A stretch of 64,000 bases of DNA from the NCBI GenBank assembly GCA_964555185.1, contig CAZKRD010000001.1, positions 34,185-98,184 on the forward strand, given 5' to 3'. The DNA is from an uncultured Candidatus Saccharibacteria bacterium. Its GTDB lineage: Bacteria; Patescibacteriota; JAQUNI01. Below the pieces are notes generated by a model. It was given only the letters and a program-made list of their open reading frames with translations. It ran no database searches and had not been told where the DNA came from. How positions within the stretch are numbered: the stretch's first letter is position 1; each line of letters begins with the position of its first letter. Shown here piece by piece: positions 5,084 to 62,406 of the stretch. Both the position numbers and the translations under genes were made by a program.

Positions 5084-5213
5084 AAGAAGTAATCACCAAT
5101 AACCAAGAAACAATAACCAGACAAATTCCAATAACCAAGTTCCAATTCGTTAGATAATTTGGTTATTCATTTTTTGCTGGTAGGTAGATTGATTATTAGT
5201 TTGTCCAGTGATT

Positions 5214-9601: not shown

Positions 9602-9735
9602 GTTCAAAGTTCAGAATTGAGTTTAAAGTTAAAAGTTGATTAGAGAGTGTTGTTGAGTGTAAAGCGCTGGGGGCTTGTAACTTTAGACTTTGAATTATAA
9701 TTTTTAACTTTGCACTTTGAATTTTTAACTATATC

Positions 9736-16801: not shown

Positions 16802-16896
16802 TTATTTTAATCTGCGCTGGAAAGTTAAGAGATTGCATCCAATTGATTGAATTATAGCATATTTTTTGGTTACAACAAATTTGTGGTATAATTAGA

Positions 16897-17160
16897 AGTG
16901 AGGAGAAAGTGAAATTCCTTTTCACTTTATCCGAGCAAGAATTTCAAGCTTGCTTATAATTAGAAGTGAGGAGAAAGTGAAATTCCTTTTCACTTTATCC
17001 GGGATTATTGCAATGGCCCGTAGGGGCGGACCCATGCTCGCCTCGCTGGCGAAGCGGGTGTCCGCCCGTTGTTGGTAAACCAAGAGTAGGGCGACCACTC
17101 ACCTACGCCAAGGCTCTGGCGGGCGGGCACGGGGTCGCCCCTACGAATTGTTACATCCAA
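16897..17160. repeat. Composite family-C repeat: two 47-bp direct repeats (tataattagaagtgaggagaaagtgaaattccttttcactttatccg) followed by a GC-rich hairpin element with CGTAGGGGCG inverted termini.
   Basis: Direct repeats at 16897-16943 and 16965-17011, separated by the palindrome agcaagaatttcaagcttgct. GC-rich body at 17023-17150 ends in ggggtcgcccctacg. Related copies at 13130-13262 and 53190-53345. Confidence 0.7.
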
Positions 17161-17193
17161 GAGCGACCGTTATTATTTAAACCTTAACTCTTT

Positions 17194-20530: not shown

Positions 20531-20621
20531 GTTAAAAGTTAAAAGTGCAAAGTTGAGTTCAAAGTTCAAAGTTTTAGATTTTTAATTTTGAACTTTGAAC
20601 TTTGAATTTTGAACTAGAAAC
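20531..20621. repeat. Family B dyad spacer (caaagtt words): gttcaaagttcaaagtt...aactttgaactttgaa between pilB and pilC.
   Basis: Imperfect long inverted repeat built from tandem caaagtt-type words. Related spacers at 9600-9735, 29155-29262, 40764-40879 and 49795-49842. Confidence 0.6.
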
Positions 20622-24704: not shown

Positions 24705-24853
24705 GTTAATTTTCAATTTTCAAGTACCAATGTACTAATCAATTTTCAATTTTCAAGTATCAATTTTCAATAACCAATGACTAAATGTTCAAACTGTTTG
24801 AAAATTAAATCTATTCGAACCTTCGGATTTGATTGAAAATTGAGATTTGAAAA
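24705..24853. repeat. Family A intergenic repeat (caattttcaa... aatgttcaaactgtttgaaaattaaatctattcgaa...), copy 1.
   Basis: Near-identical to 29395-29530 and 44407-44550, and in inverted orientation to 42171-42310. Contains the palindrome TTCAAAC-T-GTTTGAA. Confidence 0.75.
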
Positions 24854-25912
24854 TTGAAAATTATATTTATGCGTGCTTTCGGTCTGGATTTATCAGACGC
24901 CAGTTTAAAATTAATTGAATTGAAGAAAGAAGGACAAAACATTGAATTGGCCAATTTTTGTGACTTGCCGCTTGCCGAAGGGGTGATTGTCAAAGGGAGG
25001 ATCGTGAAAGAAGATTTGTTAGCAACCTCGATTAAGGAAGTTTTAAAAAAAGCGCAAAAAGGAAAAGTTAAGAACCGGTTTGTTGTCTCTTGCGTACCTG
25101 AATCTGAATCATTTGTCCGGATTATTAGTCTCCCCAACCTGCCCGAGGAGGAGCTTCCCCAGGGCGTGCGCTGGGAATTTGAACAGCATATCCCTCTTTC
25201 CTTGAACCAGGTTTATTTAGATTGGCAGAAAATTGAATCAGAAGAGGAGGAAACCAAGGTTTTAGTTATCGCTTCGCCTAAGAAGCTGATTGATGCTTAT
25301 ACCAGCGCCCTGAAAAGAGGCGGCTTGATCCCCTGGGCTGTCGAGGCGGAATCAGCCGCCACTGCCCGCAGTTTAATCAAGGAGGGAGATCCGGCTTGTT
25401 TTTTGCTGGTGGATATTGGTTTTAGCCGGACCGGCCTAATTATTTATGATCATGAGACACTGCAGTTTACTTCTGCGGTTGAACCCTTTGGCCAGTCTTT
25501 TACCGATAAATTAACCGAAGATTTAAAAGTGGGCCTGAAAGAGGCAGAGAGCCTCAAGAGAACCTATGGTTTAAGCAGCAGGAAGAAGGGGCCTTCGGAG
25601 AAGGTTCACAAATCCCTCTTGCCCCTGGTTCAATTTTTGGCCAAAGAAATTAGAATCGCGCTCAAGTTTTACTCGGAGCATTTTCCCAGAGGTCAAGCGG
25701 TCAAAAAGATTGTCTTATCCGGCGGCGGATCTAAACTGAAAGGCCTAGTACCTGAACTGAAAGCGATCCTGAAAGCGGACGTTACTTTGGGCAACCCTTG
25801 GGTTAATATTCTGGATCCAGACCATAGATATCTGCCCGAGATCAGCCGTAAGGACTCCTTAAGCTACGCGACAGCGATCGGCTTGGCCTTGCGGGGTGTG
25901 GAAGGAGTGTAA
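24854..25912 (+). CDS. pilM: Type IV pilus assembly protein PilM (actin-like ATPase).
   Basis: FGLDLSDASLKLIELKKEG...VDIGFSRTGLIIY...LSGGGSKLKGL. Alternative start at M6 (24869). Confidence 0.8.
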   Translation: MKIIFMRAFGLDLSDASLKLIELKKEGQNIELANFCDLPLAEGVIVKGRIVKEDLLATSIKEVLKKAQKGKVKNRFVVSCVPESESFVRIISLPNLPEEELPQGVRWEFEQHIPLSLNQVYLDWQKIESEEEETKVLVIASPKKLIDAYTSALKRGGLIPWAVEAESAATARSLIKEGDPACFLLVDIGFSRTGLIIYDHETLQFTSAVEPFGQSFTDKLTEDLKVGLKEAESLKRTYGLSSRKKGPSEKVHKSLLPLVQFLAKEIRIALKFYSEHFPRGQAVKKIVLSGGGSKLKGLVPELKAILKADVTLGNPWVNILDPDHRYLPEISRKDSLSYATAIGLALRGVEGV

Positions 25913-29152: not shown

Positions 29153-29264
29153 AAAATAATTAAAAGTTTAAAGTGCCTGCCTTGCCGGTAGGCAGGCAAA
29201 GTTCAAAATTTTTAACTTTAAATTCAACCTTTAACTTTGAATTTTGCACTTTAAACTAAATTAG

Positions 29265-29339: not shown

Positions 29340-29640
29340 TTTTCAATTTTTAATGGTTCGACTATACTCACCACCTTGAGCTTGCCGAAGGGTTTACTAA
29401 TCAATTTTCAATTTTCAAGTACCAATTTTCAATCAATTTTCAATAACCAATGACTAAATGTTCAAACTGTTTGAAAATTAAATCTATTTGAAAATTGGGA
29501 TTTGATTGAACATTGGTCCTTGTAAATTGGTAATTCAAACAATATTTTCAAGTACCAATGGTTCGACTATGCTTACCACCCTGCTTACCATCCTGAGCTT
29601 GCCGAAGGGTTTTTAAACAATTTCCAATGTTTTAATGTTT
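29340..29640. repeat. Family A repeat, largest copy: a full A unit (29395-29530) flanked by two ggttcgactat...gagcttgccgaagggttt sub-units (29353-29395 and 29562-29615).
   Basis: Direct sequence identity with 24705-24853 and 44407-44555, and with 42171-42367 in reverse. Confidence 0.75.
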
Positions 29641-33422: not shown

Positions 33423-33556
33423 ATTTAAAAAATCCAAATGCCAAAATCCAAATGCCAAATCAATAACCAATGTCAAATTTCAAATGACAAATTAATTTGA
33501 CATTAAGTTATTTGTAATTGATTTGACATTTGATATTTGAAATTTGGAATTAATAA
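33423..33556. repeat. Family B dyad spacer of the ccaaatg/gtcaaat type between rpsA and tilS.
   Basis: ccaaatgccaaaatccaaatgccaaatc ... gatttgacatttgatatttgaaatttgg form imperfectly complementary arms around a palindromic core. Confidence 0.55.
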
Positions 33557-34801
33557 TCAAGACTTTCTGGTTGGTTTCTTGGGTTTAGCTTTAGGCTTGG
33601 CTTTAGATTTAGGCTTGGCTTTAGCTTGAGCTTTAGGTTTAGCTTTAGATTGAGGCTTGGCTTCTTCTTCTTCAAGCGCCTTAATCGACAGACCGAGCCG
33701 GTGTTCCTCTGGTTCAATCGAGAGGATTTTGAATTTTCTCTTTTGCCCCACATTGAGCAGGTCTTCAAGTTTTTTCTTATCTCCTGAAGTGATTTCAGAG
33801 ATATGGGCCAGGCCGTGAATATCGCGATCCAATTGGACAAAGGCGCCAAAGGGCGAGAGTTTAGTAATTTCACCTTCTACTATTTTTCCTATTTTATACT
33901 TCCGCGCTTTTTTCTCCCAAGGGTCTTTTTTTAAGGCTTTTAAGGAGAGAGAGATCCGCGAGGAGTCAATGCTGATAATTTTTGCTTTAACCTTGTCTCC
34001 CATTTTGATTACGTCTTCTGGATTTTCAATCCTTTTCCAGGCCAATTCTGAAATATGGATCAGGCCCTCTAGGCCGTCAAAACGGATAAAAGCGCCAAAA
34101 TCAACAACGCCGGTGATCTCTCCGGAAACGATATTGCCCACTTTTAATTTTTCAATAATCTTCTTTTGCTTTTCCGCCGAGGCCTGTTTTTCGGAAATGA
34201 TCAGACGGTCTTCTTCCTGGTTTGAGTCAATGATTTTTACTTTCAATGTCTCGTTGATTAGGTTATTGAGTTTAGCTAAGATTTTGTTTCTATCTGCGCC
34301 TTCGACTCTAGGATAATGTTTGTGGTGCAGTTGGGAGACCGGGAGGAAGGCGGGGATTCCTTTGATTTGAGTTATTAAGCCCCCTTTATTGGCTTGATTG
34401 ACTTTAACCTCAATCGTTTCTTCTTTTTTGATTATTTCATTGATTTCGCGCCAAGCCGCTTCTCGGTGGGCCTTTTTTGAGGAGAGCTCCATCTTGCCTG
34501 CTTCATTTTCTATTTCTAAAACCGTGGCCGTTATTTTGTCGCCTAATTTGATTTTTTTCTCGGGATCCTCGTAAAGTTCAGGGCCGCGAATTACGCCTAC
34601 GCCAATTCCGGCGATGTCTACTTCGATTTCATTTTTGGAAACAGAAATTGCCTTTCCCTCAATCATGTCGTCTATTTGAGGGATTTTAAAAAGAGCGCCC
34701 TTTTTTTTCAGCAGTTTCTCCATGTCCGTTCCTTGTTTGGTTTTGGCCTCCTCTTGTTTCTTGATTAATTTGCTTAAATTTTTGCTTAAATCTTTATTCA
34801 T
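33557..34801 (-). CDS. rpsA: 30S ribosomal protein S1-like (four S1 domains) with a C-terminal AKPK repeat tail.
   Basis: Repeated S1 motifs (GDKVKAKIISID..., GNIVSGEITGVVDFGAFIRF..., GDKITATVLEIEN...). The tail is KAKPKAQAKAKPKSKAKPKAKPKKP. Confidence 0.8.
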   Translation of the reverse strand: MNKDLSKNLSKLIKKQEEAKTKQGTDMEKLLKKKGALFKIPQIDDMIEGKAISVSKNEIEVDIAGIGVGVIRGPELYEDPEKKIKLGDKITATVLEIENEAGKMELSSKKAHREAAWREINEIIKKEETIEVKVNQANKGGLITQIKGIPAFLPVSQLHHKHYPRVEGADRNKILAKLNNLINETLKVKIIDSNQEEDRLIISEKQASAEKQKKIIEKLKVGNIVSGEITGVVDFGAFIRFDGLEGLIHISELAWKRIENPEDVIKMGDKVKAKIISIDSSRISLSLKALKKDPWEKKARKYKIGKIVEGEITKLSPFGAFVQLDRDIHGLAHISEITSGDKKKLEDLLNVGQKRKFKILSIEPEEHRLGLSIKALEEEEAKPQSKAKPKAQAKAKPKSKAKPKAKPKKPTRKS

Positions 34802-38793: not shown

Positions 38794-38820
38794 ATGCCGG
38801 GCAGGATGCCCGGTTTTTTG
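38794..38820. terminator. GC-hairpin terminator after gyrA.
   Basis: gccgggcaggatgcccggc followed by ttttttg. Confidence 0.7.
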
Positions 38821-38835
38821 AAATAAAAAAGATCT

Positions 38836-39303
38836 CTAGAGAAAAAAGAGATCTTGAGCGCAGTAAAGGGCCGGATTTGCCAGGAATTTAAAAGCATGAA
38901 TAACTACTAGAACTTCAGCCGTCAGACAGATGCCTCCCAGTAGGCCTGTGGGAAATTCGTCTTCCAGTTGATACATCATAGTGAAGAAGGCGAAAGCATA
39001 AGCAGCCATTATCACAATAAATATCCACCCTTCACCTAAGAGATAAAGAAAGTGGATAGAGAGCGCAACCAGTAGTATGTAGAGCGGGCTTAAACAAATT
39101 TTGACCCAGGGCAGAAAATGGCCGATGACAAAGCTCAATCCTATACCACCGAGGGTGAAAATAAGTAGAAAGTTCGCTGTCATAACAAAGCTATAGCGGA
39201 GAGACAATGAAAAGAGCAGACCAAGGCCCAAAGCTGTGATAACAGCAGTAGAAATCACGAATTGCTTCTCGCCTGCTTCCATCCAGTATTCTGAATCTCT
39301 CAT
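38836..39303 (-). CDS. Hypothetical small membrane protein (4 TM).
   Basis: Start at the internal M (MRDSEYWMEAGEKQ...). Hydrophobic. Follows a similar membrane-protein gene. Confidence 0.45.
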   Translation of the reverse strand: MRDSEYWMEAGEKQFVISTAVITALGLGLLFSLSLRYSFVMTANFLLIFTLGGIGLSFVIGHFLPWVKICLSPLYILLVALSIHFLYLLGEGWIFIVIMAAYAFAFFTMMYQLEDEFPTGLLGGICLTAEVLVVIHAFKFLANPALYCAQDLFFL

Positions 39304-39329
39304 CTTCAGTCTCCTTTCAGAATTTTTGG

Positions 39330-39782
39330 TCAGGATATTCGTTTTACCGCCTCTATAATAAGAACGATCAACAAAAACTCGATCCCAACCCCAAATAACC
39401 ATCTGGCTTTTAATGGACTGTCAGGTCCGAGGTAGTAGGTGGGGGAATAGATAGTCAGGAACATGCCACCTAATAAGCAGATTAGGGCCACGCCATCCAG
39501 GACATCTGGCCAGGGCGAAAGGCGGCAGCCAATGATCATAATACAACCACAGGCTAAGATGAAAGCTCCCAAAAAAGTCAGGGCCTTTCTGGAAAATAGA
39601 GAGGCAACCACGGAAACCACGATAGCACCAAGAGTCGTGAAGAGGGCAGCATAGATACAATTCTCCAGTGTGAGAACTTTGGTTATTAAAGGAACAAAGA
39701 ATGTGCCTAGCGCTACAATGGTAGCTAGGCCCGTAGCGATCAGGACTATGTTGTTATCTAATCTTTGCTTTAATCCAGCCAT
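39330..39782 (-). CDS. Hypothetical small membrane protein (4 TM).
   Basis: 150 aa and hydrophobic. Confidence 0.45.
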   Translation of the reverse strand: MAGLKQRLDNNIVLIATGLATIVALGTFFVPLITKVLTLENCIYAALFTTLGAIVVSVVASLFSRKALTFLGAFILACGCIMIIGCRLSPWPDVLDGVALICLLGGMFLTIYSPTYYLGPDSPLKARWLFGVGIEFLLIVLIIEAVKRIS

Positions 39783-39821
39783 TATTAGGTCTCCTTTCCT
39801 TTCTCGGTGTTCGATGTGAGC

Positions 39822-40166
39822 TTAATCTATCCGTTTACAACCTTCAAAATGAACCTTGTTGTCATTAAATACTTTGACAACCTTGTATCTTCCTTTTGTA
39901 TATATTTCCTTGTTTTTAATAAAATGGGTTGCTTCTAAAATAATAATGCTTGCTTTTGGCCGTGAAAGCTGTTGATTGCCTTTGGTTTCGACAAGAGGGA
40001 TTTCACCATGCAGCCAGTAATTGCGCTGTTCTTTTTTTAAGAAAGGGTAGATTCTGCCTGTTTTCAAATTTGCCGGGATGCATTCCGCCCTCTTGCGTCT
40101 GCCTTTTTTGAATTCTGCTATGTTGCGCAGAGCAAGATCTGGATTGAACTCAACTTTAATACCCAT
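39822..40166 (-). CDS. Hypothetical basic 114-aa protein downstream of clpP.
   Basis: MGIKVEFNPDLALRNIAEFKKGRRKRAECIPANLKTGRIYPFLKKEQRNYWLHGEIPLVE... No family recognised. Confidence 0.45.
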   Translation of the reverse strand: MGIKVEFNPDLALRNIAEFKKGRRKRAECIPANLKTGRIYPFLKKEQRNYWLHGEIPLVETKGNQQLSRPKASIIILEATHFIKNKEIYTKGRYKVVKVFNDNKVHFEGCKRID

Positions 40167-40187
40167 GGTTTTAGTGTGGGGTTGATT

Positions 40188-40763
40188 TTACTTCTTAATC
40201 ACTTTGTCTACGATTCCGTATTTTACTGCTTCTTGGGCAGTCATATAAAAGTCGCGGTCTGTGTCTTTTTCGATTTTCTTTAAGGCCTGGCCAGTATGCT
40301 TGGCCAAAATTTTGTTGATCCGGTCTTTAACTTTCAGGATGTGCTCGGCTCGGATCGCAATGTCCGTGGCCTGGCCTTCTGCTCCGCCCATTACTTGGTG
40401 GAGCAGAATTTCGGAATTGGGCAGGGCAAAACGTTTGCCAGGAGTGCCGGAAGTGAGGAGCGCGGCCCCCATCGAGCTAGCCAGACCAATGCAGATTGTG
40501 GAAACATCGGGTTTAATGTATTGAATCGTGTCGTAGATAGCAAAGCCGGATGTGACTGAACCGCCGGCTGTATTGATGTAGAGATGAATCTCTTTATCCT
40601 GATCTTCCGAAGCCAGGAACAGAAGCTGGGCAATCACTGTATTGGCGACAGCATCATTGATTGTGTTGCCCAAGAAAACAATCCGTTCCTTTAAGAGCCG
40701 GGAGTAGATATCAAAAGCTCGCTCTCCGGAGTGTGATTTTTCAATGACAGTTGGAATCAACAT
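40188..40763 (-). CDS. clpP: ATP-dependent Clp protease proteolytic subunit.
   Basis: [20 protein letters not shown]...[11 protein letters not shown]...HQVMGG carries the Ser/His/Asp triad context. Start at the internal ATG (40763). Confidence 0.9.
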
Positions 40764-40879
40764 ATAGTTCAAAGTTAAAAGTGCAAAATTCAAAGTTGAA
40801 TTCAAAGTTCAAAGTTAAGTTTTTTTAATGATTTGGGTCTTAGATTGCAACTTTTAACTTTGCACTTTGAACTTTTAAC
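40764..40879. repeat. Family B dyad spacer between nrnA and clpP (gttcaaagttaaaagtgcaaa ... tttgcactttgaacttttaac).
   Basis: Near-perfect inverted arms of about 21 nt flanking a 60-nt core. Confidence 0.6.
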
Positions 40880-41830
40880 TTATTTTTGGATCACCCACTT
40901 CCCTTTTTTACGCGCTAGGCGCCCTTTGATCGTAAAGCCGGAAGCTAGTGGGTGTCCCCCGCCTCCGTAGCGGGCAGCGATTTTAGCGACATCGACTCCC
41001 CGCCCTTTTTCCGAACGCAAACTTGCTTTGATCTTGTTTTTTTCTTGTTCCGAGAGCAGCATGGCGTATTTAGTGCCTTCAGCGGTATTGATGATGCTGA
41101 CCACGCCGTCCAGGTCCTCTGGTTTGGCCCCGAGTTCTTCAAAATCCTTTTGGGTAATAGCAGACAGAGTGACGCCCTTTTTCTTATCTTGGAGGGTGCG
41201 GGTAAGCGCTCGCCCCCAGATTTTTAAGGCGGGCAGGGATTTATTCTGATAGGTTTGCTGGGCGATTTTGTTCAAGTTTGCTCCTTGCTTCATTAGATCA
41301 GCGGCTACTTCCAGGGTCTGGGGCAGGGTGTTGGCGTGTTGAAAACTGCCTGTGTCCGTAAAAATTCCAGTCAGAAGGCAGTTGGCAATCTTGTGGTCCT
41401 GGATATTTAGTTTTTGAATCAGAAAATAGAGTATTTCGGCCGTAGAAGAAGTTTTGGTTTCAACCAGATTCAGATTACCAAAGGGCTTTTTTTGGGGATG
41501 ATGGTCGATATTGATCAGGGCCCTGTATTGAAGGTGGGACCATTTCAAGCCAATCCTTTTTTTATCCCCGGCATCCAAGGCGATAATAATATCAAATTTT
41601 TTCCCGGGAAGCTCATTCACGATTTTATCAGAAGCAGGCAAGAAAGAGAGATTTTTGGGGACAGGATCAGGAGAAAAACAGACGACCCTCTTCTTCATCT
41701 TTTTTAAAGCCAGAGCCAAAGCGAGCATTGATCCCACGCCGTCGCCGTCAGGATTTTCATGAATAGCAAGCAGAAAAGAGGAAAATTTCTTCAATATTTT
41801 CAAGACAAGGTTAAGGTCTTTTTTTGACAT
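40880..41830 (-). CDS. nrnA: DHH-family phosphoesterase NrnA (nanoRNase / pAp phosphatase).
   Basis: HENPDGDGVGS...INIDHHPQ are DHH motifs, followed by a DHHA1 C-terminal region with GGGH. Confidence 0.8.
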   Translation of the reverse strand: MSKKDLNLVLKILKKFSSFLLAIHENPDGDGVGSMLALALALKKMKKRVVCFSPDPVPKNLSFLPASDKIVNELPGKKFDIIIALDAGDKKRIGLKWSHLQYRALINIDHHPQKKPFGNLNLVETKTSSTAEILYFLIQKLNIQDHKIANCLLTGIFTDTGSFQHANTLPQTLEVAADLMKQGANLNKIAQQTYQNKSLPALKIWGRALTRTLQDKKKGVTLSAITQKDFEELGAKPEDLDGVVSIINTAEGTKYAMLLSEQEKNKIKASLRSEKGRGVDVAKIAARYGGGGHPLASGFTIKGRLARKKGKWVIQK

Positions 41831-42170
41831 TTTGATCTAAGAGTTTATTGATCCTTTCTGCTTTTTCTTGAGAAGTGTCAACACTAAAGTGAAGTTTGGG
41901 GATCTTTCTTAAATGGAGGCGGGAACTAAGGAGGGATTGTAGCTTAATCTTATTTCTTTGTAAAGTTTTCACAATTAAGCTTCTTTTATCTTCAGGTAGA
42001 ACCGAAATCCAAATGCGAGCTTGGGACAGATCTCGAGAAGTGACAACTCGAATTATGGTCGTAAGAGTATTAGGCGGCAGATCGATTTCTGTCAAAATCG
42101 CATTTGCCAGTTCCTTTTTAATCAGGCTGTTAAGTTTTGCAATACGGTAGGACATGGGGTTAATTTTCAA
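41811..42170 (-). CDS. rbfA: Ribosome-binding factor A.
   Basis: RIAKLNSLIKKELANAILTEI...TIIRVVTSRDLSQARIWISVL. Downstream of infB, as in the canonical operon. Confidence 0.8.
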   Translation of the reverse strand: MKINPMSYRIAKLNSLIKKELANAILTEIDLPPNTLTTIIRVVTSRDLSQARIWISVLPEDKRSLIVKTLQRNKIKLQSLLSSRLHLRKIPKLHFSVDTSQEKAERINKLLDQNVKKRP

Positions 42171-42367
42171 TTTTCAAATCTCAATTTTCAATCAAATCCG
42201 AAGGTTCAATGATTTAATTTTCAAACAGTTTGAACATTTCATCATTGGTTATTGGAAATTGATTAGTAAATTGGTACTTGAAAATTGAAAATTGATTGTA
42301 AACCCTTCGGCAAGGTCCAAGCGGTGAGCATAGTCGAACCATTGAAAATCGTCAATTGAAAATTTCC
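42171..42367. repeat. Family A repeat, inverted copy, with an adjacent ggttcgactatgctcaccgcttgg...gccgaagggttt sub-unit.
   Basis: Reverse complement matches 29395-29615. Confidence 0.7.
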
Positions 42368-44406: not shown

Positions 44407-44555
44407 GGGAGGGGGTTAATTTTCAATTTTCAAGTACCAATTTTCAATCAATTTTCAATAACCAATGACTAAATGTTCAAACTGTTTGAAAATTAAATCT
44501 ATTCGAAAATTGGGATTTGATTGTAAATTGAAAATTGTAAATTGAAAAATTTTCT
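44407..44555. repeat. Family A repeat, copy 4.
   Basis: Identical core to 24705-24853. Confidence 0.75.
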
Positions 44556-47446: not shown

Positions 47447-48332
47447 TCTTTGAGTGATAATTAGAGTGTCACTCAAACCCTAAAAACAAAAAAGAAAAAA
47501 ACAAAAAGACACGGACGAGTAATGGAAGATAAAACAAAAAGAAAAACAAAAATTATAAAAAACAATTTGCATTTATCCTATTAGGTGTTTGACTTAATAG
47601 GAGGAAGGGCCCTTCCAAGGTTTCGTTTTATGACTGGGCATTTTAGGGGCTAATGGTCGGAAGTTTTTTGTTTATCCAGAATATTTTTTGATTTTAAATA
47701 ATTTAGCCAGTAATCGTAATTTTCCTGTTTCAGGTTCAACCTGAACTGTCACCCCTTGGAATAACCACCCCTTGGAATAATTGAGTCCCCTCTTCTTCAT
47801 TTAAATAATTAAACGTTCTGGGTAAATCATTTTTTGGTTTCAGTTGGTCTTTATTAATCTTGATGTTTTCAAGTTGATCAGGGAATATATTTTTTATTTT
47901 TAAGCCTCCTATAAAATTAAAAATAAAGACACTCCTGATTGGTTAATGCAAATCTCGTTCGGTTTGCAACTCGCCTCAAATTTTGGGTCAATTTCGAGTT
48001 GTCGTGAAATTTGAAAACTGTTTCAGTATTTTTGTGAGGAGATTTTATTTTTTTACTTGTTTGTCGCGAGAAGAAAAAGAATTCTTAAATCCACTATTTT
48101 TATTTACTCGCCGCTCACTGTTAAGACCATGGGTCTTGCCGTGTGATCCCACCGTGAATTCGGAAATACCCTCTGTCCGGTAGGCAGGCTTTGATCGTCC
48201 CTCGACAAGCTCTGGACTCGCTCGTAATGACATTTTGTGAGTTTCCAGATTCACGGATTCCACTTTTGACAATTCATTTGTTTTTTGTTTTTATTTTCAA
48301 GAACCCCTTTAGAACAATTGAGGTAATGGATG

Positions 48333-49757: not shown

Positions 49758-49845
49758 GCCAGCAATTTACAAGCAATGGAGTTTTATAATATACTGAATA
49801 CAAACAAACTTTAAACTTTGCACTTTGAATTTTGAACTGAATCCC

Positions 49846-49919: not shown

Positions 49920-50071
49920 CAAGGTACATAATCTAGATTTTTTATTTGGGTTTTGATATAATAATTACAAAACAAAAAGCCAAATCTGAATCAGGAGGGA
50001 TTTGGCTTTGTTTGGTCCTTTTCAAACTTACTTATCTAATCCTGTAACTGGCAACACAAGGAGGAATGGTT

Positions 50072-51556
50072 ATGATTGAGCGATATACAGACGGGAAGAT
50101 TGTTGAAATCTGGTCCGATTCACACAAACTGTCTCTTTGGCAAAAGACAGAACTGGCAGTGATTGAGGCGATGGCCAATTTGGGGCGGATTGAAAGAGGG
50201 GTCTACAGCCGCATCCGTGAGGCCTTGGATGGTAATCCCATAGATATAGAATGGTGGAAACAAAGAGATCAAGAAATTCATCATGATCTTAATGCTTTCC
50301 TTGATGAGCGTGCGCGTTTCTTGGGCGCTGATCTAGAGCAATATTGGCATCAGGGACTCACTTCTTATGATACAGAAGAGCCTGCTTTTGCCAGAATGCT
50401 TCGATCATCACTGCACAGGGTCGAAGCCCATTACGGCAATTTAGTAGAAGCTTTAAAAGAGAAGGCGTGGCAGTATCGTTATGTGATTATGATCGGTCGC
50501 ACCCATGGCCAGGCCGCTCAATTGCAAAGCGCTGGCAAGAGGTTCTTGTGCTGGCTTCAAGATCTTGCTGTAGATGAGGTGAGTTTATTGAAAGCAGGGA
50601 GGAACCTCAAATATTCTAAACTCTCTGGCGCAATTGGCAATTATGGAGGCCTTGATCCTGATTTAGAGAAAGAGGCTTTGCGTGTCTTAGGATTCGAGCC
50701 TTTCTATGGTGCAACTCAAATTATGCCTCGTGAGATGTGCGCACCTTTGGCTCAAGTGCTTTGCCAGCTGGTTTGTACTTTAGACAAAATTGCAGTTGCA
50801 ATACGGTTAGGCGCGAGAAGTCCGCATCCGATCTATCAGGAGCCGTTTGGCCAAAAACACAAAGGCTCTTCTGTTATGCCTCAGAAGAAGAACCCGATCC
50901 GTAGCGAGCAAGTTGAAGGTATGGCTAATATGGCTAAGGCGTATTTGCGGATGATCATGGATAACATCCGCACCTGGGAAGAAAGAGCAATTGAACAGTC
51001 TTGCGTAGAAAGGGTTGCTTGGCCTGATCTTTTCCATATTGTTGTCCATGTGCTCAAAAGAATGGAAAAGGTGCTTCAGGGCTTAGTGATTTATCCTGAC
51101 AATATGCTCTGGGAGATCCATGAAAGCCGAGGATGTTATGCTTCTTCCGAGGCCAAGGAGTTTCTGAAGCGAGAGGGAGTAGAATATGGTCTTAGCGCTG
51201 AAGACGCCTACCGGATTGTGCAGCTTGCTGCTTTTATTGCTTTCGAACCAGGTGATCGTTTGCGAGATTTGCGCACAGACCTGCCTATTTCTCTAGTGGA
51301 AGCAGACCATCTACTTTTAGCTTTCCCGCAGATGCCCAAATCCCCTGATGTTTCTCTATGTTATATTATCAGGGAGGGCCTCTTGAGTATTTCAGAAGAG
51401 CTTGCCGCCACAGAGGAGGAAATAAAAAGGTGGGTAGAGATTTTAGAGAAGATTTTCACTGAACAGGAAAAACGTGATGATTGGAATCGGCTTTTTTTGC
51501 CCTCTTATCTCTTGCGTAATGAGGAAAAACTCTACCAAGAGATTTTGAGTCTATAA
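50072..51556 (+). CDS. purB: Adenylosuccinate lyase.
   Basis: Fumarate-lyase signature GSSVMPQKKNP and a PurB-like N-terminus ERYTDGKIVEIWSD. RBS aaggagg at 7 nt. Confidence 0.8.
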   Translation: MIERYTDGKIVEIWSDSHKLSLWQKTELAVIEAMANLGRIERGVYSRIREALDGNPIDIEWWKQRDQEIHHDLNAFLDERARFLGADLEQYWHQGLTSYDTEEPAFARMLRSSLHRVEAHYGNLVEALKEKAWQYRYVIMIGRTHGQAAQLQSAGKRFLCWLQDLAVDEVSLLKAGRNLKYSKLSGAIGNYGGLDPDLEKEALRVLGFEPFYGATQIMPREMCAPLAQVLCQLVCTLDKIAVAIRLGARSPHPIYQEPFGQKHKGSSVMPQKKNPIRSEQVEGMANMAKAYLRMIMDNIRTWEERAIEQSCVERVAWPDLFHIVVHVLKRMEKVLQGLVIYPDNMLWEIHESRGCYASSEAKEFLKREGVEYGLSAEDAYRIVQLAAFIAFEPGDRLRDLRTDLPISLVEADHLLLAFPQMPKSPDVSLCYIIREGLLSISEELAATEEEIKRWVEILEKIFTEQEKRDDWNRLFLPSYLLRNEEKLYQEILSL

Positions 51557-51573
51557 TTAAGGAGGAATGGATT

Positions 51574-52086
51574 ATGGCTAAAGTTGCGGTTGTTGTAGGT
51601 AGTAAGAGTGACCTTGAGATAGTAAAAGAGTCTGGAATGTTAGAGGTGTTTAACGAAATGGGCGTGCCTATAGAGGTATCGATCATTTCCGCGCACCGTA
51701 ACCCAGATACACTACCGAACTATTGCCAGAAGGTTCTTAAGAGAAATGATGGCCGGGTGATTTTCATTGCCATTGCTGGAATGGCTGCTGCCCTGGCAGG
51801 CGCGATTGCCGCCCATGCCCGGAAAACGTCAGTGATTGGCGTACCTTTGCCTTCCCGAGAAAAACCAGAAGCGGAAGATGCTTTGTACGCTATGCTTCAA
51901 ATGCCCAAAGATGTTCCGGTGGCTGTGCCTGGAATAGGGAAGTCTGGATTATACAAGGCCGCCATCTTGGCTTGCCAGATTTTGGCCCTGACGGATTCAG
52001 ACTATTGGCTCGCACTAGATGGTTTTATTAAAGATCATCATAAAGAGCCCCAGATTGATATTTCGTTATCAGAAGAGGAGGAGTGA
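51574..52086 (+). CDS. purE: Phosphoribosylaminoimidazole carboxylase catalytic subunit / N5-CAIR mutase.
   Basis: MAKVAVVVGSKSDLEIVKE...SAHRNPD...GMAAALAG is the PurE fold signature. RBS aaggagg. Confidence 0.85.
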   Translation: MAKVAVVVGSKSDLEIVKESGMLEVFNEMGVPIEVSIISAHRNPDTLPNYCQKVLKRNDGRVIFIAIAGMAAALAGAIAAHARKTSVIGVPLPSREKPEAEDALYAMLQMPKDVPVAVPGIGKSGLYKAAILACQILALTDSDYWLALDGFIKDHHKEPQIDISLSEEEE

Positions 52087-52089
52087 ACA

Positions 52090-53115
52090 ATGGGAGCAAA
52101 GATTCCAGAAGCAATTCAGGAAACAGCGTTAAGCCGTAAGCTTGCTGCTGCCGGTCTTAATCGAGTTTATCAAGGTAAGGTCCGGGATACTTGTGCCGTA
52201 CCAAGTAATGACAAACTTCTACTGGTTGTTGCTTCAGGTCGTTTGAGTATTTTTGACTTTGTGTTGAATTGCCAGGTGAAAGATAAAGGTCAAATCTTGA
52301 CTGCTCTAACCATCTTCTGGCTGACCACTGTATTGAAAGATACAATACATCACTTGATCGCTTTCGGTGCAGGCATTGATGCGTATTTACCTCCTGACTT
52401 GAGAGGAAATCCAGAGTTGCAAGCCAGAGCCGTGGTGGTCAGAAAACTTGAGATAATATCAGTTGAATGCGTGGTCAGAGGTTGTCTTACGGGTTCGGGT
52501 TGGCGATCCTATCGAATGGATGGCACTGTTTGTGGTCAGAGCTTGCCACCTGGTTTGCATGATGGATCAAGACTAGATAAGCCTATTTTTACACCAACGA
52601 GCAAGGCAGTATTTGGTCATGATCAGCCCATGACTAGGGAGCAGGTAAGGCAGAGACATACAGAAGAGCTAGAAGATTTTAGTTTGGCATACTATAACAC
52701 AGCACGTAGTTATGCTGAAGAACACGATGTCATCATCGCTGATACTAAATTTGAGTTTGGCCGTTTAGACGACGGATCACTCTCTGTTCTTGCTGATGAG
52801 GTAATTACCCCTGATTCATCGCGTTTCTGGGACCGAGAAGAATGGGAAATAGCCCAAAAAGAACAGAGAGCACCTCAAGGTTATGATAAAGAGCCTGTGC
52901 GTCAAGAGGGCAAGGGAGTTGAAACGCCTTTTTCCGGTTTAACTGGTATTCATAGTCTTGATGCGCAGGATGAAGAGCATATCATATTTGTACATCAATG
53001 GAGGGTTCCAAAAGAGGTTCTTTCCGCCACTAGAAAACGTTACCGCACGATCTTTGAACGTTTAACTGGGAGGTCTCTTGAAAGCTTCCAGAGAGATGTG
53101 ATGCACATTGGCTAG
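52090..53115 (+). CDS. purC: Phosphoribosylaminoimidazole-succinocarboxamide (SAICAR) synthase, long form.
   Basis: YQGKVRDTCAV...LLLVVASGRLSIFDFVL...IADTKFEFG are PurC motifs. Confidence 0.8.
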   Translation: MGAKIPEAIQETALSRKLAAAGLNRVYQGKVRDTCAVPSNDKLLLVVASGRLSIFDFVLNCQVKDKGQILTALTIFWLTTVLKDTIHHLIAFGAGIDAYLPPDLRGNPELQARAVVVRKLEIISVECVVRGCLTGSGWRSYRMDGTVCGQSLPPGLHDGSRLDKPIFTPTSKAVFGHDQPMTREQVRQRHTEELEDFSLAYYNTARSYAEEHDVIIADTKFEFGRLDDGSLSVLADEVITPDSSRFWDREEWEIAQKEQRAPQGYDKEPVRQEGKGVETPFSGLTGIHSLDAQDEEHIIFVHQWRVPKEVLSATRKRYRTIFERLTGRSLESFQRDVMHIG

Positions 53116-53189
53116 ATATCGCCACAGAGCATTTTAGACACACATAGGCACCAATTTATCTTTGAACGGTGCCTTTTTTATAATTCGCA

Positions 53190-53345
53190 GTGAGCCTGCC
53201 TGCCGGTAGGCAGGGTAGGCAGGGAGAAAGTGAAATTCCTTTTCACTTTATTCGGGATTATTGTCATTACCCGTAGGGGCAACCCTTGTGGTTGCCCGTC
53301 TGTGGCATTTGTTTAGCCGACAATGGGCAACCACAAGGGTTGCCC
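53190..53345. repeat. Family C element, copy 3: cctgcc/ggcagg hairpin, agaaagtgaaattccttttcacttt hairpin, then a 25-bp perfect inverted repeat (gtaggggcaacccttgtggttgccc) around a 27-nt loop.
   Basis: The perfect inverted repeat is visible directly at 53268-53344. Confidence 0.7.
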
Positions 53346-53494
53346 CTACAAAACCGTCCCAGACTAGGTGATATTATTGGCGCATTTAAATCAATGACAA
53401 CCTGTAGTTACATCCAAAATTAAGAATTTCGAGCTTGCTTGATTTGTCTGAATTTTGCTATATTTAAAGAATGAGAATAAGATACTAGAAACAA

Positions 53495-54148: not shown

Positions 54149-54284
54149 TTTCTAATTTTTAATTAATGCTTAATTTGTAATGATTTAATTTTCAAAAAAT
54201 CAAAACGCGTGATAGGTTTGAAAATTAAAAATTAGGTTATTAAAAATTGATTAAAAACTAAAAATTAAAAATTTATTCAAATTC

Positions 54285-62200: not shown

Positions 62201-62230
62201 GGCTTTTCTTTAAGGAAGCTTTCAGAAGAC

Positions 62231-62267
62231 AACCAAAGCCGCTTGAATTTTCGGGCGGTTTTTGGTT
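62231..62267 (+). terminator. Candidate Rho-independent terminator after the KH gene.
   Basis: aaccaaagccgcttgaattttcgggcggtttttggttt is a short GC stem followed by a T-run. Confidence 0.45.
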
Positions 62268-62270
62268 TAA

Positions 62271-62400
62271 TAGTCTTGTAACCTATAACGTATAACCTAT
62301 AACCTATAACATAATAACCTATAACCTGTAACTTGTAACCCAAGAATGATATTCTTTGTTTTTCAAAAAACTTGCGTTACAGGTTACAAGTTACACGCTA
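62271..62400. repeat. Family B dyad spacer of the taacctat type, with the nested palindrome aagaatGATattctt, upstream of trmD.
   Basis: About 8 tandem taacctat-like words, then an inverted arm gttacaggttacaagttac. Confidence 0.6.
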
Positions 62401-62406
62401 CAAGAT

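Follow-up and report, generated by a model that had tools for sequence, protein, structure and literature searches.

Heptamer repeats in the intergenic DNA of cyanobacteria were, to our knowledge, recognized decades ago, and no function for them has won general acceptance. In filamentous cyanobacteria, the STRRs (short tandemly repeated repetitive sequences) form hairpins between co-transcribed genes, such as hupS-hupL; no function has been established for these hairpins, which have been suggested to act in transcript stability, in translational coupling or in pausing (PMC2670836). Direct repeats of the heptamer TAACTGA have been described in marine Beggiatoaceae, some cyanobacteria and Bacteroidetes, and a role in translation has been proposed for them (PMC4679880). 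Here we describe palindromes of tandem heptamers in a 64-kb window (the whole stretch of 64,000 nucleotides that was analyzed, part of a 707-kb metagenomic scaffold) from an uncultured member of the Patescibacteria, or candidate phyla radiation (CPR), centered on a 116-bp element that occupies the entire spacer between nrnA and clpP at 40764..40879. In each of these elements a short core is flanked by two arrays of a 7-bp word that face each other head to head. On balance, and with moderate confidence, we read the nrnA-clpP spacer as one copy of a lineage-specific class of palindromic heptamer repeats, STRR-like and like miniature inverted-repeat transposable elements (MITEs), that spreads at the DNA level and is tolerated in operons. 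The presence of the same kind of repeat in small, streamlined CPR genomes means that the phenomenon is not a cyanobacterial oddity.

The likeness to STRRs lies in the tandem 7-bp intergenic units, in the formation of hairpins between co-transcribed genes, and in the occurrence of several families at many dispersed intergenic loci of one genome, with at least six families in the 64 kb of the window. The host is different, being a CPR bacterium and not a heterocystous cyanobacterium: the window contains only 2 sites of HIP1, a cyanobacterial marker, and all relatives are Patescibacteria, on which grounds a cyanobacterial origin was rejected. The nearest relatives are metagenome-assembled genomes (MAGs) that bear the label Doudnabacteria, Berkelbacteria or Saccharibacteria. 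For NusA, a protein of "Candidatus Doudnabacteria" shows 75% identity, and NrnA is 68% identical to that of a MAG labelled Saccharibacteria and 45% identical to that of Berkelbacteria. The words of the window also differ from the classical STRR units. A further difference is that the present form is mirrored, with two arms that fill the spacer from stop to start codon, and that concerted evolution and the swapping of families at orthologous sites are shown here. With the TAACTGA repeats, the elements share the placement of heptamer arrays in intergenic DNA just before start codons and a patchy distribution across phyla, whereas the TAACTGA arrays are almost all direct repeats of one word in 2-6 copies, with only one inverted set (PMC4679880), and the present elements comprise several families of inverted arm pairs.

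The focal spacer is flanked upstream by a gene for a NrnA-like DHH/DHHA1 phosphoesterase (40880..41830, minus strand) and downstream by clpP (40188..40763, minus strand), whose start ATG at 40763-40761 aligns with the ATGs of its orthologues. As read on the plus strand, the left arm (40766..40816) consists of 7.6 copies of tandem AGTTCAA (nAAAGTT) words with a period of 7 according to Tandem Repeats Finder (TRF), the core or loop (40817..40848; AAGTTTTTTTAATGATTTGGGTCTTAGATTGC) is non-repetitive and varies among family members, and the right arm (40849..40881), in which TRF identified 4.7 copies of AACTTTG words, is the reverse complement of the left arm and contains the family signature AACTTTGCACTTTGAA. 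A repeat finder delimited the arms as 42 nt long, 83% complementary and separated by 31 nt. The RNA of the spacer, taken in gene sense, folds into a single long stem-loop with a minimum free energy (MFE) of -31.8 kcal/mol, and the stem extends in the minus-strand transcript from the last base of the nrnA stop codon to 2 nt before the clpP AUG. Shuffling tests, named in a first-pass annotation of this DNA as the means of telling such dyads from low-complexity AT-rich sequence, bear the feature out: dinucleotide shuffles averaged -14.2 kcal/mol and none of 200 folded equally well (z = -5.76), and the same was true of 200 shuffles of 7-nt blocks, which keep the words and lose their mirror order (z = -3.5). 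As single-stranded DNA the spacer has a fold of -21.9 (z = -5.82). Because a Logan short-read contig (L002), which is an independent assembly, spans the element at 100% identity, the hairpin is not an assembly artefact. The feature is real and statistically solid.

Among the 45 intergenic spacers of at least 40 nt in the window, we identified 12 heptamer-arm hairpins and one lone arm, so that roughly one quarter of the longer spacers bear a hairpin and not nearly every spacer, as had been claimed. CPR genomes are thought to hold little dispensable DNA, which makes an element class of this frequency notable. Three further hairpins belong to the CAAAGTT family of the focal element; these are located between the RNase Y and YmdB-like genes (9602..9735), between pilB and pilC (20531..20621), and in the tRNA-Met/tRNA-Ala spacer, which is filled by the element and contains a small GC-rich hairpin nested within it (29154..29263). 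The lone arm, a right arm of the same family on the plus strand that adjoins tRNA-Arg (49807..49838), had been listed as a hairpin at 49795-49842 and proved to be single (MFE -2.8; inverted-repeat score 0). Elements of the AATTTTC family lie upstream of pilM after a hypothetical gene (24705..24872), at 29398..29540 with a nested GC-rich element on both flanks, between infB and rbfA (42157..42300), and between a YegS-like kinase gene and a small open reading frame (ORF) upstream of infB (44416..44550). A CCAAATG/CATTTGG hairpin separates rpsA from tilS (33423..33556), a TAATTTT/AAAATTA hairpin separates the RNase HII gene from a methyltransferase gene (54149..54284), and between khpA and trmD an array of 8.7 TAACCTA copies together with a GTAACnT/AnGTTAC hairpin (62271..62406) ends 2 nt before the trmD ATG (62407). 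A weaker AATAACC/GGTTATT hairpin is present at 5084..5213. None of the palindromes is assigned a strand. The window thus holds at least six word families: nAAAGTT, AATTTTC, CCAAATG, TAACCTA, TAATTTT and AATAACC. The seven hairpins with CAAAGTT, CCAAATG, TAATTTT and TAACCTA words had been recognized in the first-pass annotation, which had also named the gene pairs pilB/pilC, nrnA/clpP, rpsA/tilS and KH(KhpA)/trmD correctly; the four AATTTTC elements and the one at 5084-5213 had been overlooked. Each of the 12 hairpins is flanked by co-directional genes or tRNAs and none occupies a convergent spacer, so that the earlier placement of some of them in convergent runs does not stand.

The elements of the window are uniform in build. 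They measure 90-170 bp, with arms of 40-55 nt that are 15-31% GC and 76-94% complementary and a core of 10-60 nt, and their predicted stabilities range from -22 to -42 kcal/mol. The words are tandem, as had been reported, but their unit length is 7 and not 6-8 bp, since TRF returned a period of 7 in every arm and the 6- and 8-nt forms are indel variants; identity at lag 7 was 0.44-0.73 versus about 0.29 at other lags. Inverted 6-mer matches across the two arms numbered 18-37, and direct ones 0-3 in most hairpins. Against dinucleotide shuffles the fold z-scores were -2.9 to -6.0 for the hairpins and about -1.6 to -5.6 for whole spacers, and against word-preserving 7-nt block shuffles the hairpins scored -2.6 to -6.6. 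A stem starts at the stop codon of the upstream gene or within a few nucleotides of it, and its other end generally lies 2-6 nt short of the next start, as in the junction ...GAACUAU-AUG. No ORF of 80 aa or more was listed inside the hairpin spacers, and an Rfam covariance-model search identified only tRNAs, both at the gathering score and at E <=0.1.

Copies at different loci are related by descent and not only by composition, as judged from sequence that they hold in common. When the 16-mer AACTTTGCACTTTGAA was searched with up to 3 mismatches, 23 matches were found versus 1.7 expected, and 22 of these fell within five spacers. The order of word variants at the outer ends is the same in the copies at 9602, 29154, 40764 and 49807, and the four AATTTTC copies have in common their arms plus a non-repetitive core of about 60 nt that is found facing either way with respect to transcription. 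One earlier suggestion had been an unusual class of repeats produced by slippage. Slippage is consistent with the changes in array copy number between relatives, but the word order and cores common to separate loci, together with homogenization within the genome, make local slippage alone insufficient. Two contigs from independent short-read assemblies of the same organism (L002 and L003) terminate inside three of the elements (window positions 33430, 40773 and 42190), as happens where dispersed repeats disrupt assemblies, and the starts of clpP, tilS and trmD were over-extended into the arms by ORF finding and gene callers.

Orthologous spacers were obtained from a close relative represented by the JGI contig L041/L110, whose NrnA is 95% identical and which shows 91-93% nucleotide identity to the window over 35 kb. 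Paralogous AATTTTC elements are 87-93% identical within the window and 92% identical within L041, whereas orthologous pairs between the two are only 79-80% identical, one of them with an inverted core, in flanks that are 91-93% identical. Paralogues are thus closer to each other than orthologues, which amounts to concerted evolution by gene conversion or re-insertion. In two AATTTTC elements of L041 the arms are retained and the cores differ; the rpsA-tilS hairpin is 94% identical there, and the counterpart of the lone arm at 49807 consists of different words. Array length also varies, from 8.7 TAACCTA copies in the window to about 2 in L110, and from 7 copies of a heptamer array in L070 to 12 in L071. 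At the RNase HII spacer, the TAATTTT hairpin of the window is replaced in L110 by an element of the AATTTTC family. The focal hairpin is itself absent from L041, where 107 nt of unrelated GC-rich sequence with an ordinary fold (z = -0.54) take its place; no further copies of that sequence were found among the compared loci. Elsewhere the nrnA-clpP spacer contains a TGAAAAn hairpin (L043), an AAAGTCA hairpin (L006) or no hairpin (L045; z = +1.64). The pilB-pilC spacer is only 14 nt long in L046 and holds hairpins of four word families in five relatives, with CAAAGTT, TAATTTT, CATTTTG or AATTTTC words in L051, L049, L047 and L050; the final few nucleotides before the ATG are conserved among the relatives, as expected if elements were inserted into a short ancestral spacer. 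The infB-rbfA, pilB-pilC and nrnA-clpP spacers carry hairpins in several lineages with differing words, and among close relatives elements are gained, lost or swapped between families at the same spacer. Taken together, these sequence comparisons provide good evidence for intragenomic homogenization and rapid turnover.

We surveyed 637 kb of CPR loci, including the window, with a simple detector; the controls were 351 kb of loci from outside the CPR whose GC content is similar or lower. The CPR loci contained 31 heptamer hairpins, and the 351 kb of controls contained none. All 31 were in co-directional spacers, of which there were 224, along with 33 divergent and 35 convergent spacers; the probability of this by chance is about 3e-4, and about 0.01 when only convergent spacers are considered. 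Period-7 arrays are patchy across CPR lineages, and non-palindromic heptamer arrays are present in L070, L071 and L079. Among the 77 arrays found in CPR loci, AAAATTG, AAAAATT and AAAGTTC are the commonest, and words of the type A(3-5)-[G/T]-T-N dominate. A scan of viral contigs for AACTTTGCACTTTGAAC returned 13 matches, none in the context of a heptamer array and most resembling ordinary coding sequence, and a phage link was rejected for this reason. Literature searches returned no description of heptamer or tandem repeats in CPR, Patescibacteria or Saccharibacteria, within an incomplete coverage of the literature that does not prove their absence.

These elements are best described as a CPR-lineage variant of known heptamer-repeat palindromic elements, new in such form. 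Bacterial MITEs (Correia/NEMIS, RUP, Nezha) are small non-coding elements with terminal inverted repeats, dispersed and polymorphic copies, and the potential to fold as RNA when co-transcribed. The present elements are like them in being 90-170 bp long, non-coding and inverted at their termini, with dispersed homologous copies at sites that are filled or empty across relatives; they differ in that the inverted repeats are tandem heptamer arrays of variable length and in that a Pfam search of 8806-64000 identified no autonomous parent or transposase. Eukaryotic Foldback transposons are kilobase-scale elements with long inverted termini of short tandem repeats around a variable middle, and with these the resemblance is architectural only, given their scale and hosts.

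That the palindromes are made and maintained at the DNA level is indicated by three observations taken together: the absence of strand asymmetry, the absence of compensatory changes, and the occurrence of the core in both orientations. Of 34 cases, 17 had the sense strand as the more stable one (Wilcoxon p = 0.76), and G.U pairs numbered 108 in sense versus 121 in antisense; no asymmetry that would betray selection at the RNA level was found, the sense fold being no more stable. Arm covariation in related genomes had been proposed as a check; between the window and L041 there are few substitutions, none compensatory and most of them pair-breaking in a fixed alignment, and since tandem words permit register shifts this comparison is uninformative or, if anything, negative. 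The elements would arise and spread through slippage combined with gene conversion or template switching between arms or copies, or through the action of some transposase. Once transcribed, an insert would fold back on itself, looping out 90-150 nt so that the stop and start codons remain neighbors. In a streamlined genome whose operon spacers are about 14 nt long, only inserts that fold in this way, and so keep stop and start adjacent, might survive in operons. A likely side effect is that the downstream start would sit at the foot of a stem with a stability of about -30 kcal/mol, which a ribosome terminating upstream would open, giving translational coupling. The stem may also double as a double-stranded RNA site for processing or stabilization, and processing would fit the tRNA-tRNA spacer as well.

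Several observations weigh against a DNA-level spreading element. Among the genes called at 8806-64000 of the window, Pfam identified no transposase domain, and neither an unambiguous target-site duplication nor a clean empty site was found at the sites compared. TA does flank both ends of five complete CAAAGTT-family copies, but TA is self-complementary and may merely extend the inverted repeat, and the AATTTTC family is inconsistent in this respect. A purely selfish element would be expected to have placed about 4 hairpins in the 35 convergent spacers, where none was seen (P ~0.01), which suggests some link with co-transcription; the confinement to co-directional spacers and a geometry that runs from stop to start also need accounting for. 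The words AAAATTG and AAAGTTC recur in CPR lineages whose PilC proteins are only about 40% identical, which could reflect a sequence-specific constraint rather than drift. Finally, the consequences of the hairpins at the RNA level are wholly inferred. As a candidate mobilizer we considered an IS200-like Y1 transposase gene that adjoins clpP in L043 (11737-12303; Pfam E = 3.8e-7) and is represented likewise in L044; this was rejected, as the corresponding position of the window has no homologue and the gene is more plausibly tied to GC-rich palindromes of the GTAG type.

The hairpins could instead be selected intercistronic RNA stem-loops, acting as RNase III-type processing sites, 3' stabilizers or coupling devices whose sequence drifts while the long stem stays. 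The co-directional placement of all 31 hairpins, stems that begin at the stop codon and stop 2-6 nt short of the start codon, a hairpin between two tRNA genes (a sensible place for a processing stem), the recurrence of hairpins at pilB-pilC, infB-rbfA and nrnA-clpP across lineages despite different words, and the rarity of Shine-Dalgarno motifs in the genome all accord with this, but selection on RNA sits poorly with sense and antisense strands that are equal in stability and G.U content, with zero compensatory substitutions between the window and L041, with a conserved core found in both orientations, and with close relatives (L041, L045 and L046) that have no hairpin at the matching sites, and we judge it unlikely. 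A Shine-Dalgarno-like motif was observed upstream of only about 10 of 64 predicted genes, most starts being preceded by A/T-rich sequence. A more elaborate version, in which the stem would be an operon device of the whole CPR, is quite unlikely in our view: the stem would juxtapose stop and start codons and be cut or unwound, the downstream cistrons, mostly lacking a Shine-Dalgarno sequence, would be translated by handed-over ribosomes or nearly leaderless after double-strand cleavage, and the A(3-5)-[G/T]-T-N words would be recognized by a dedicated protein. Were it true, Patescibacteria would express operons in a way not known before, and the cyanobacterial heptamer repeats would gain a testable function. 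Protein recognition without such a device, with the arrays as binding sites of a protein that recognizes specific DNA or RNA sequences (for instance a nucleoid protein, a regulator, or a cold-shock or KH/S1-type protein taking one unit per heptamer) or of a DNA-uptake receptor and with the palindrome secondary, draws on the dominance of that word type among the 77 CPR arrays and its recurrence in distant lineages, and cold-shock protein binding has been discussed for the TAACTGA repeats (PMC4679880). However, one genome contains at least six unrelated word families, the family at a given site switches between relatives, the bias to AT-rich words may merely mirror spacer composition, and no candidate protein was identified, which leaves this possibility very unlikely.

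Termination or attenuation, also proposed in the first-pass annotation, would have the hairpins stop or pause RNA polymerase between genes as AT-rich intrinsic terminators. Intrinsic terminators have a short GC-rich stem (about 5-15 bp), a small loop and an immediate 3' U-run, and stand at the end of a transcription unit. The present hairpins do combine length with stability (-22 to -42 kcal/mol), and every one of them follows directly on a stop codon, but their stems are AU-rich and 40-55 bp long, and a terminator scan did not return them; the stem is followed not by a T-run but by 2-6 nt and then the next start codon; and they stand within pilB-pilC, infB-rbfA and a tRNA-tRNA spacer, with none of 31 at a convergent gene end. 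In the relatives examined the flanking genes are still next to each other, and L041, a near-identical relative, lacks the focal hairpin. Sites with a GC-rich stem and a T-run do exist elsewhere, an ordinary one at a convergent gene end (38796-38814) and another (AACCAAAGCCGCTTGAATTTTCGGGCGGTTTTTGGTT) directly downstream of khpA at about 62230-62268, which is conserved in L110 and L111 where the neighboring heptamer array is not; the latter, within the khpA-trmD cluster, is possibly a true terminator or attenuator. The elements therefore do not look like intrinsic terminators, and although pausing or termination has been suggested for the cyanobacterial STRR hairpins (PMC2670836), we consider such a role extremely unlikely here. 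Independent origin in place, by slippage that expands an AT-rich spacer and quasi-palindrome template switching that mirrors it, with no dispersal, would explain why array copy number differs between close relatives and why non-palindromic heptamer arrays occur in L070, L071 and L079, and among long simple-repeat units heptamers are reported to be the most frequent in the majority of bacterial genomes examined (PMC4679880). It does not account for ordered word variants or a 60-nt non-repetitive core common to separate loci, for paralogues more similar than orthologues, or for identical families at unrelated sites in different genomes, and is highly unlikely. We therefore retain the reading of a palindromic heptamer-repeat class that spreads at the DNA level. 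Its elements turn over faster than the surrounding genes and offer a compact system for following how palindromic repeats spread and are tolerated; in practice they break short-read CPR assemblies, mislead start-codon calls and could serve as strain markers.

A smaller GC-rich element accompanies the AATTTTC family. A 39-nt insertion (GGTTCGACTATGCTCACC...CTTGCCGAAGGG) on the minus strand at 42302..42340 lies beside the AATTTTC element between infB and rbfA, the orthologous site of L041 lacks it, and further copies are located at 29355-29392 and 29560-29609. At these three positions the element (GGTTCGACTATRCTYACC...CTTGCCGAAGGG; 39-50 nt) is nested beside AATTTTC-family hairpins, and similar GC-rich palindromes (GTCATTGCGAGGAG...CTCGCAATGAC) lie within heptamer-hairpin cores in L050, L079 and L111.

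GC-rich palindromes of a different kind are present at 16902-17145 and 53195-53349. Within the second, at 53273-53349, GTAGGGGCAACCCTTGTGGTTGCCC pairs with a perfect 25-nt complement, and within the first, at 17019-17145, CGTAGGGGCGGACCC... pairs with ...GGGTCGCCCCTACG; the spacers that contain them, 16802-17193 (z = -5.8) and 53116-53494 (z = -8.6), have the strongest fold z-scores of the window. Repetitive extragenic palindromic (REP) and REPIN elements, which RAYT transposases mobilize, are like the heptamer hairpins in being palindromes repeated in intergenic DNA and evolving within a genome (PMC3116915, PMC3733652). REPs are 20-40 nt long and GC-rich with a GTAG or CGTC tag, in contrast to the heptamer hairpins, which are AT-rich, tagless and far longer; the separate GTAG...CTAC palindromes of the window suit the REP class better and, from their sequence, look like GTAG-tagged REP elements.

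Other differences from the relatives concern gene content. Downstream of clpP, a segment of about 1.1 kb (39046-40185) is without a counterpart in L041; it contains two small ORFs without Pfam matches and the 5' end of a third. At 50066-53115, the purine-synthesis genes Lyase_1, AIRC and SAICAR_synt lie between Wzy_C and RNase HII; L041/L110 has two small hypothetical ORFs there in place of the three, and in L111, a more distant relative, Lyase_1 and SAICAR_synt genes occur there. Inside the 3' end of rpsA (33578-33654), a tandem repeat of hexamer/18-mer units (TTTAGC...) encodes a low-complexity C-terminal tail and differs in length from L041 by 42 nt. The convergent spacer at 47447-48044 (598 nt), which is partly conserved in L041, contains A-rich arrays of period 6-8 at 47482-47552 and a perfect 16-nt direct repeat (CACCCCTTGGAATAAC, two copies) at 47750-47780. 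On the same scaffold, about 4.7 kb past the 3' end of the window, an ORF for a LAGLIDADG homing endonuclease is located at 19789-20229 of L096.

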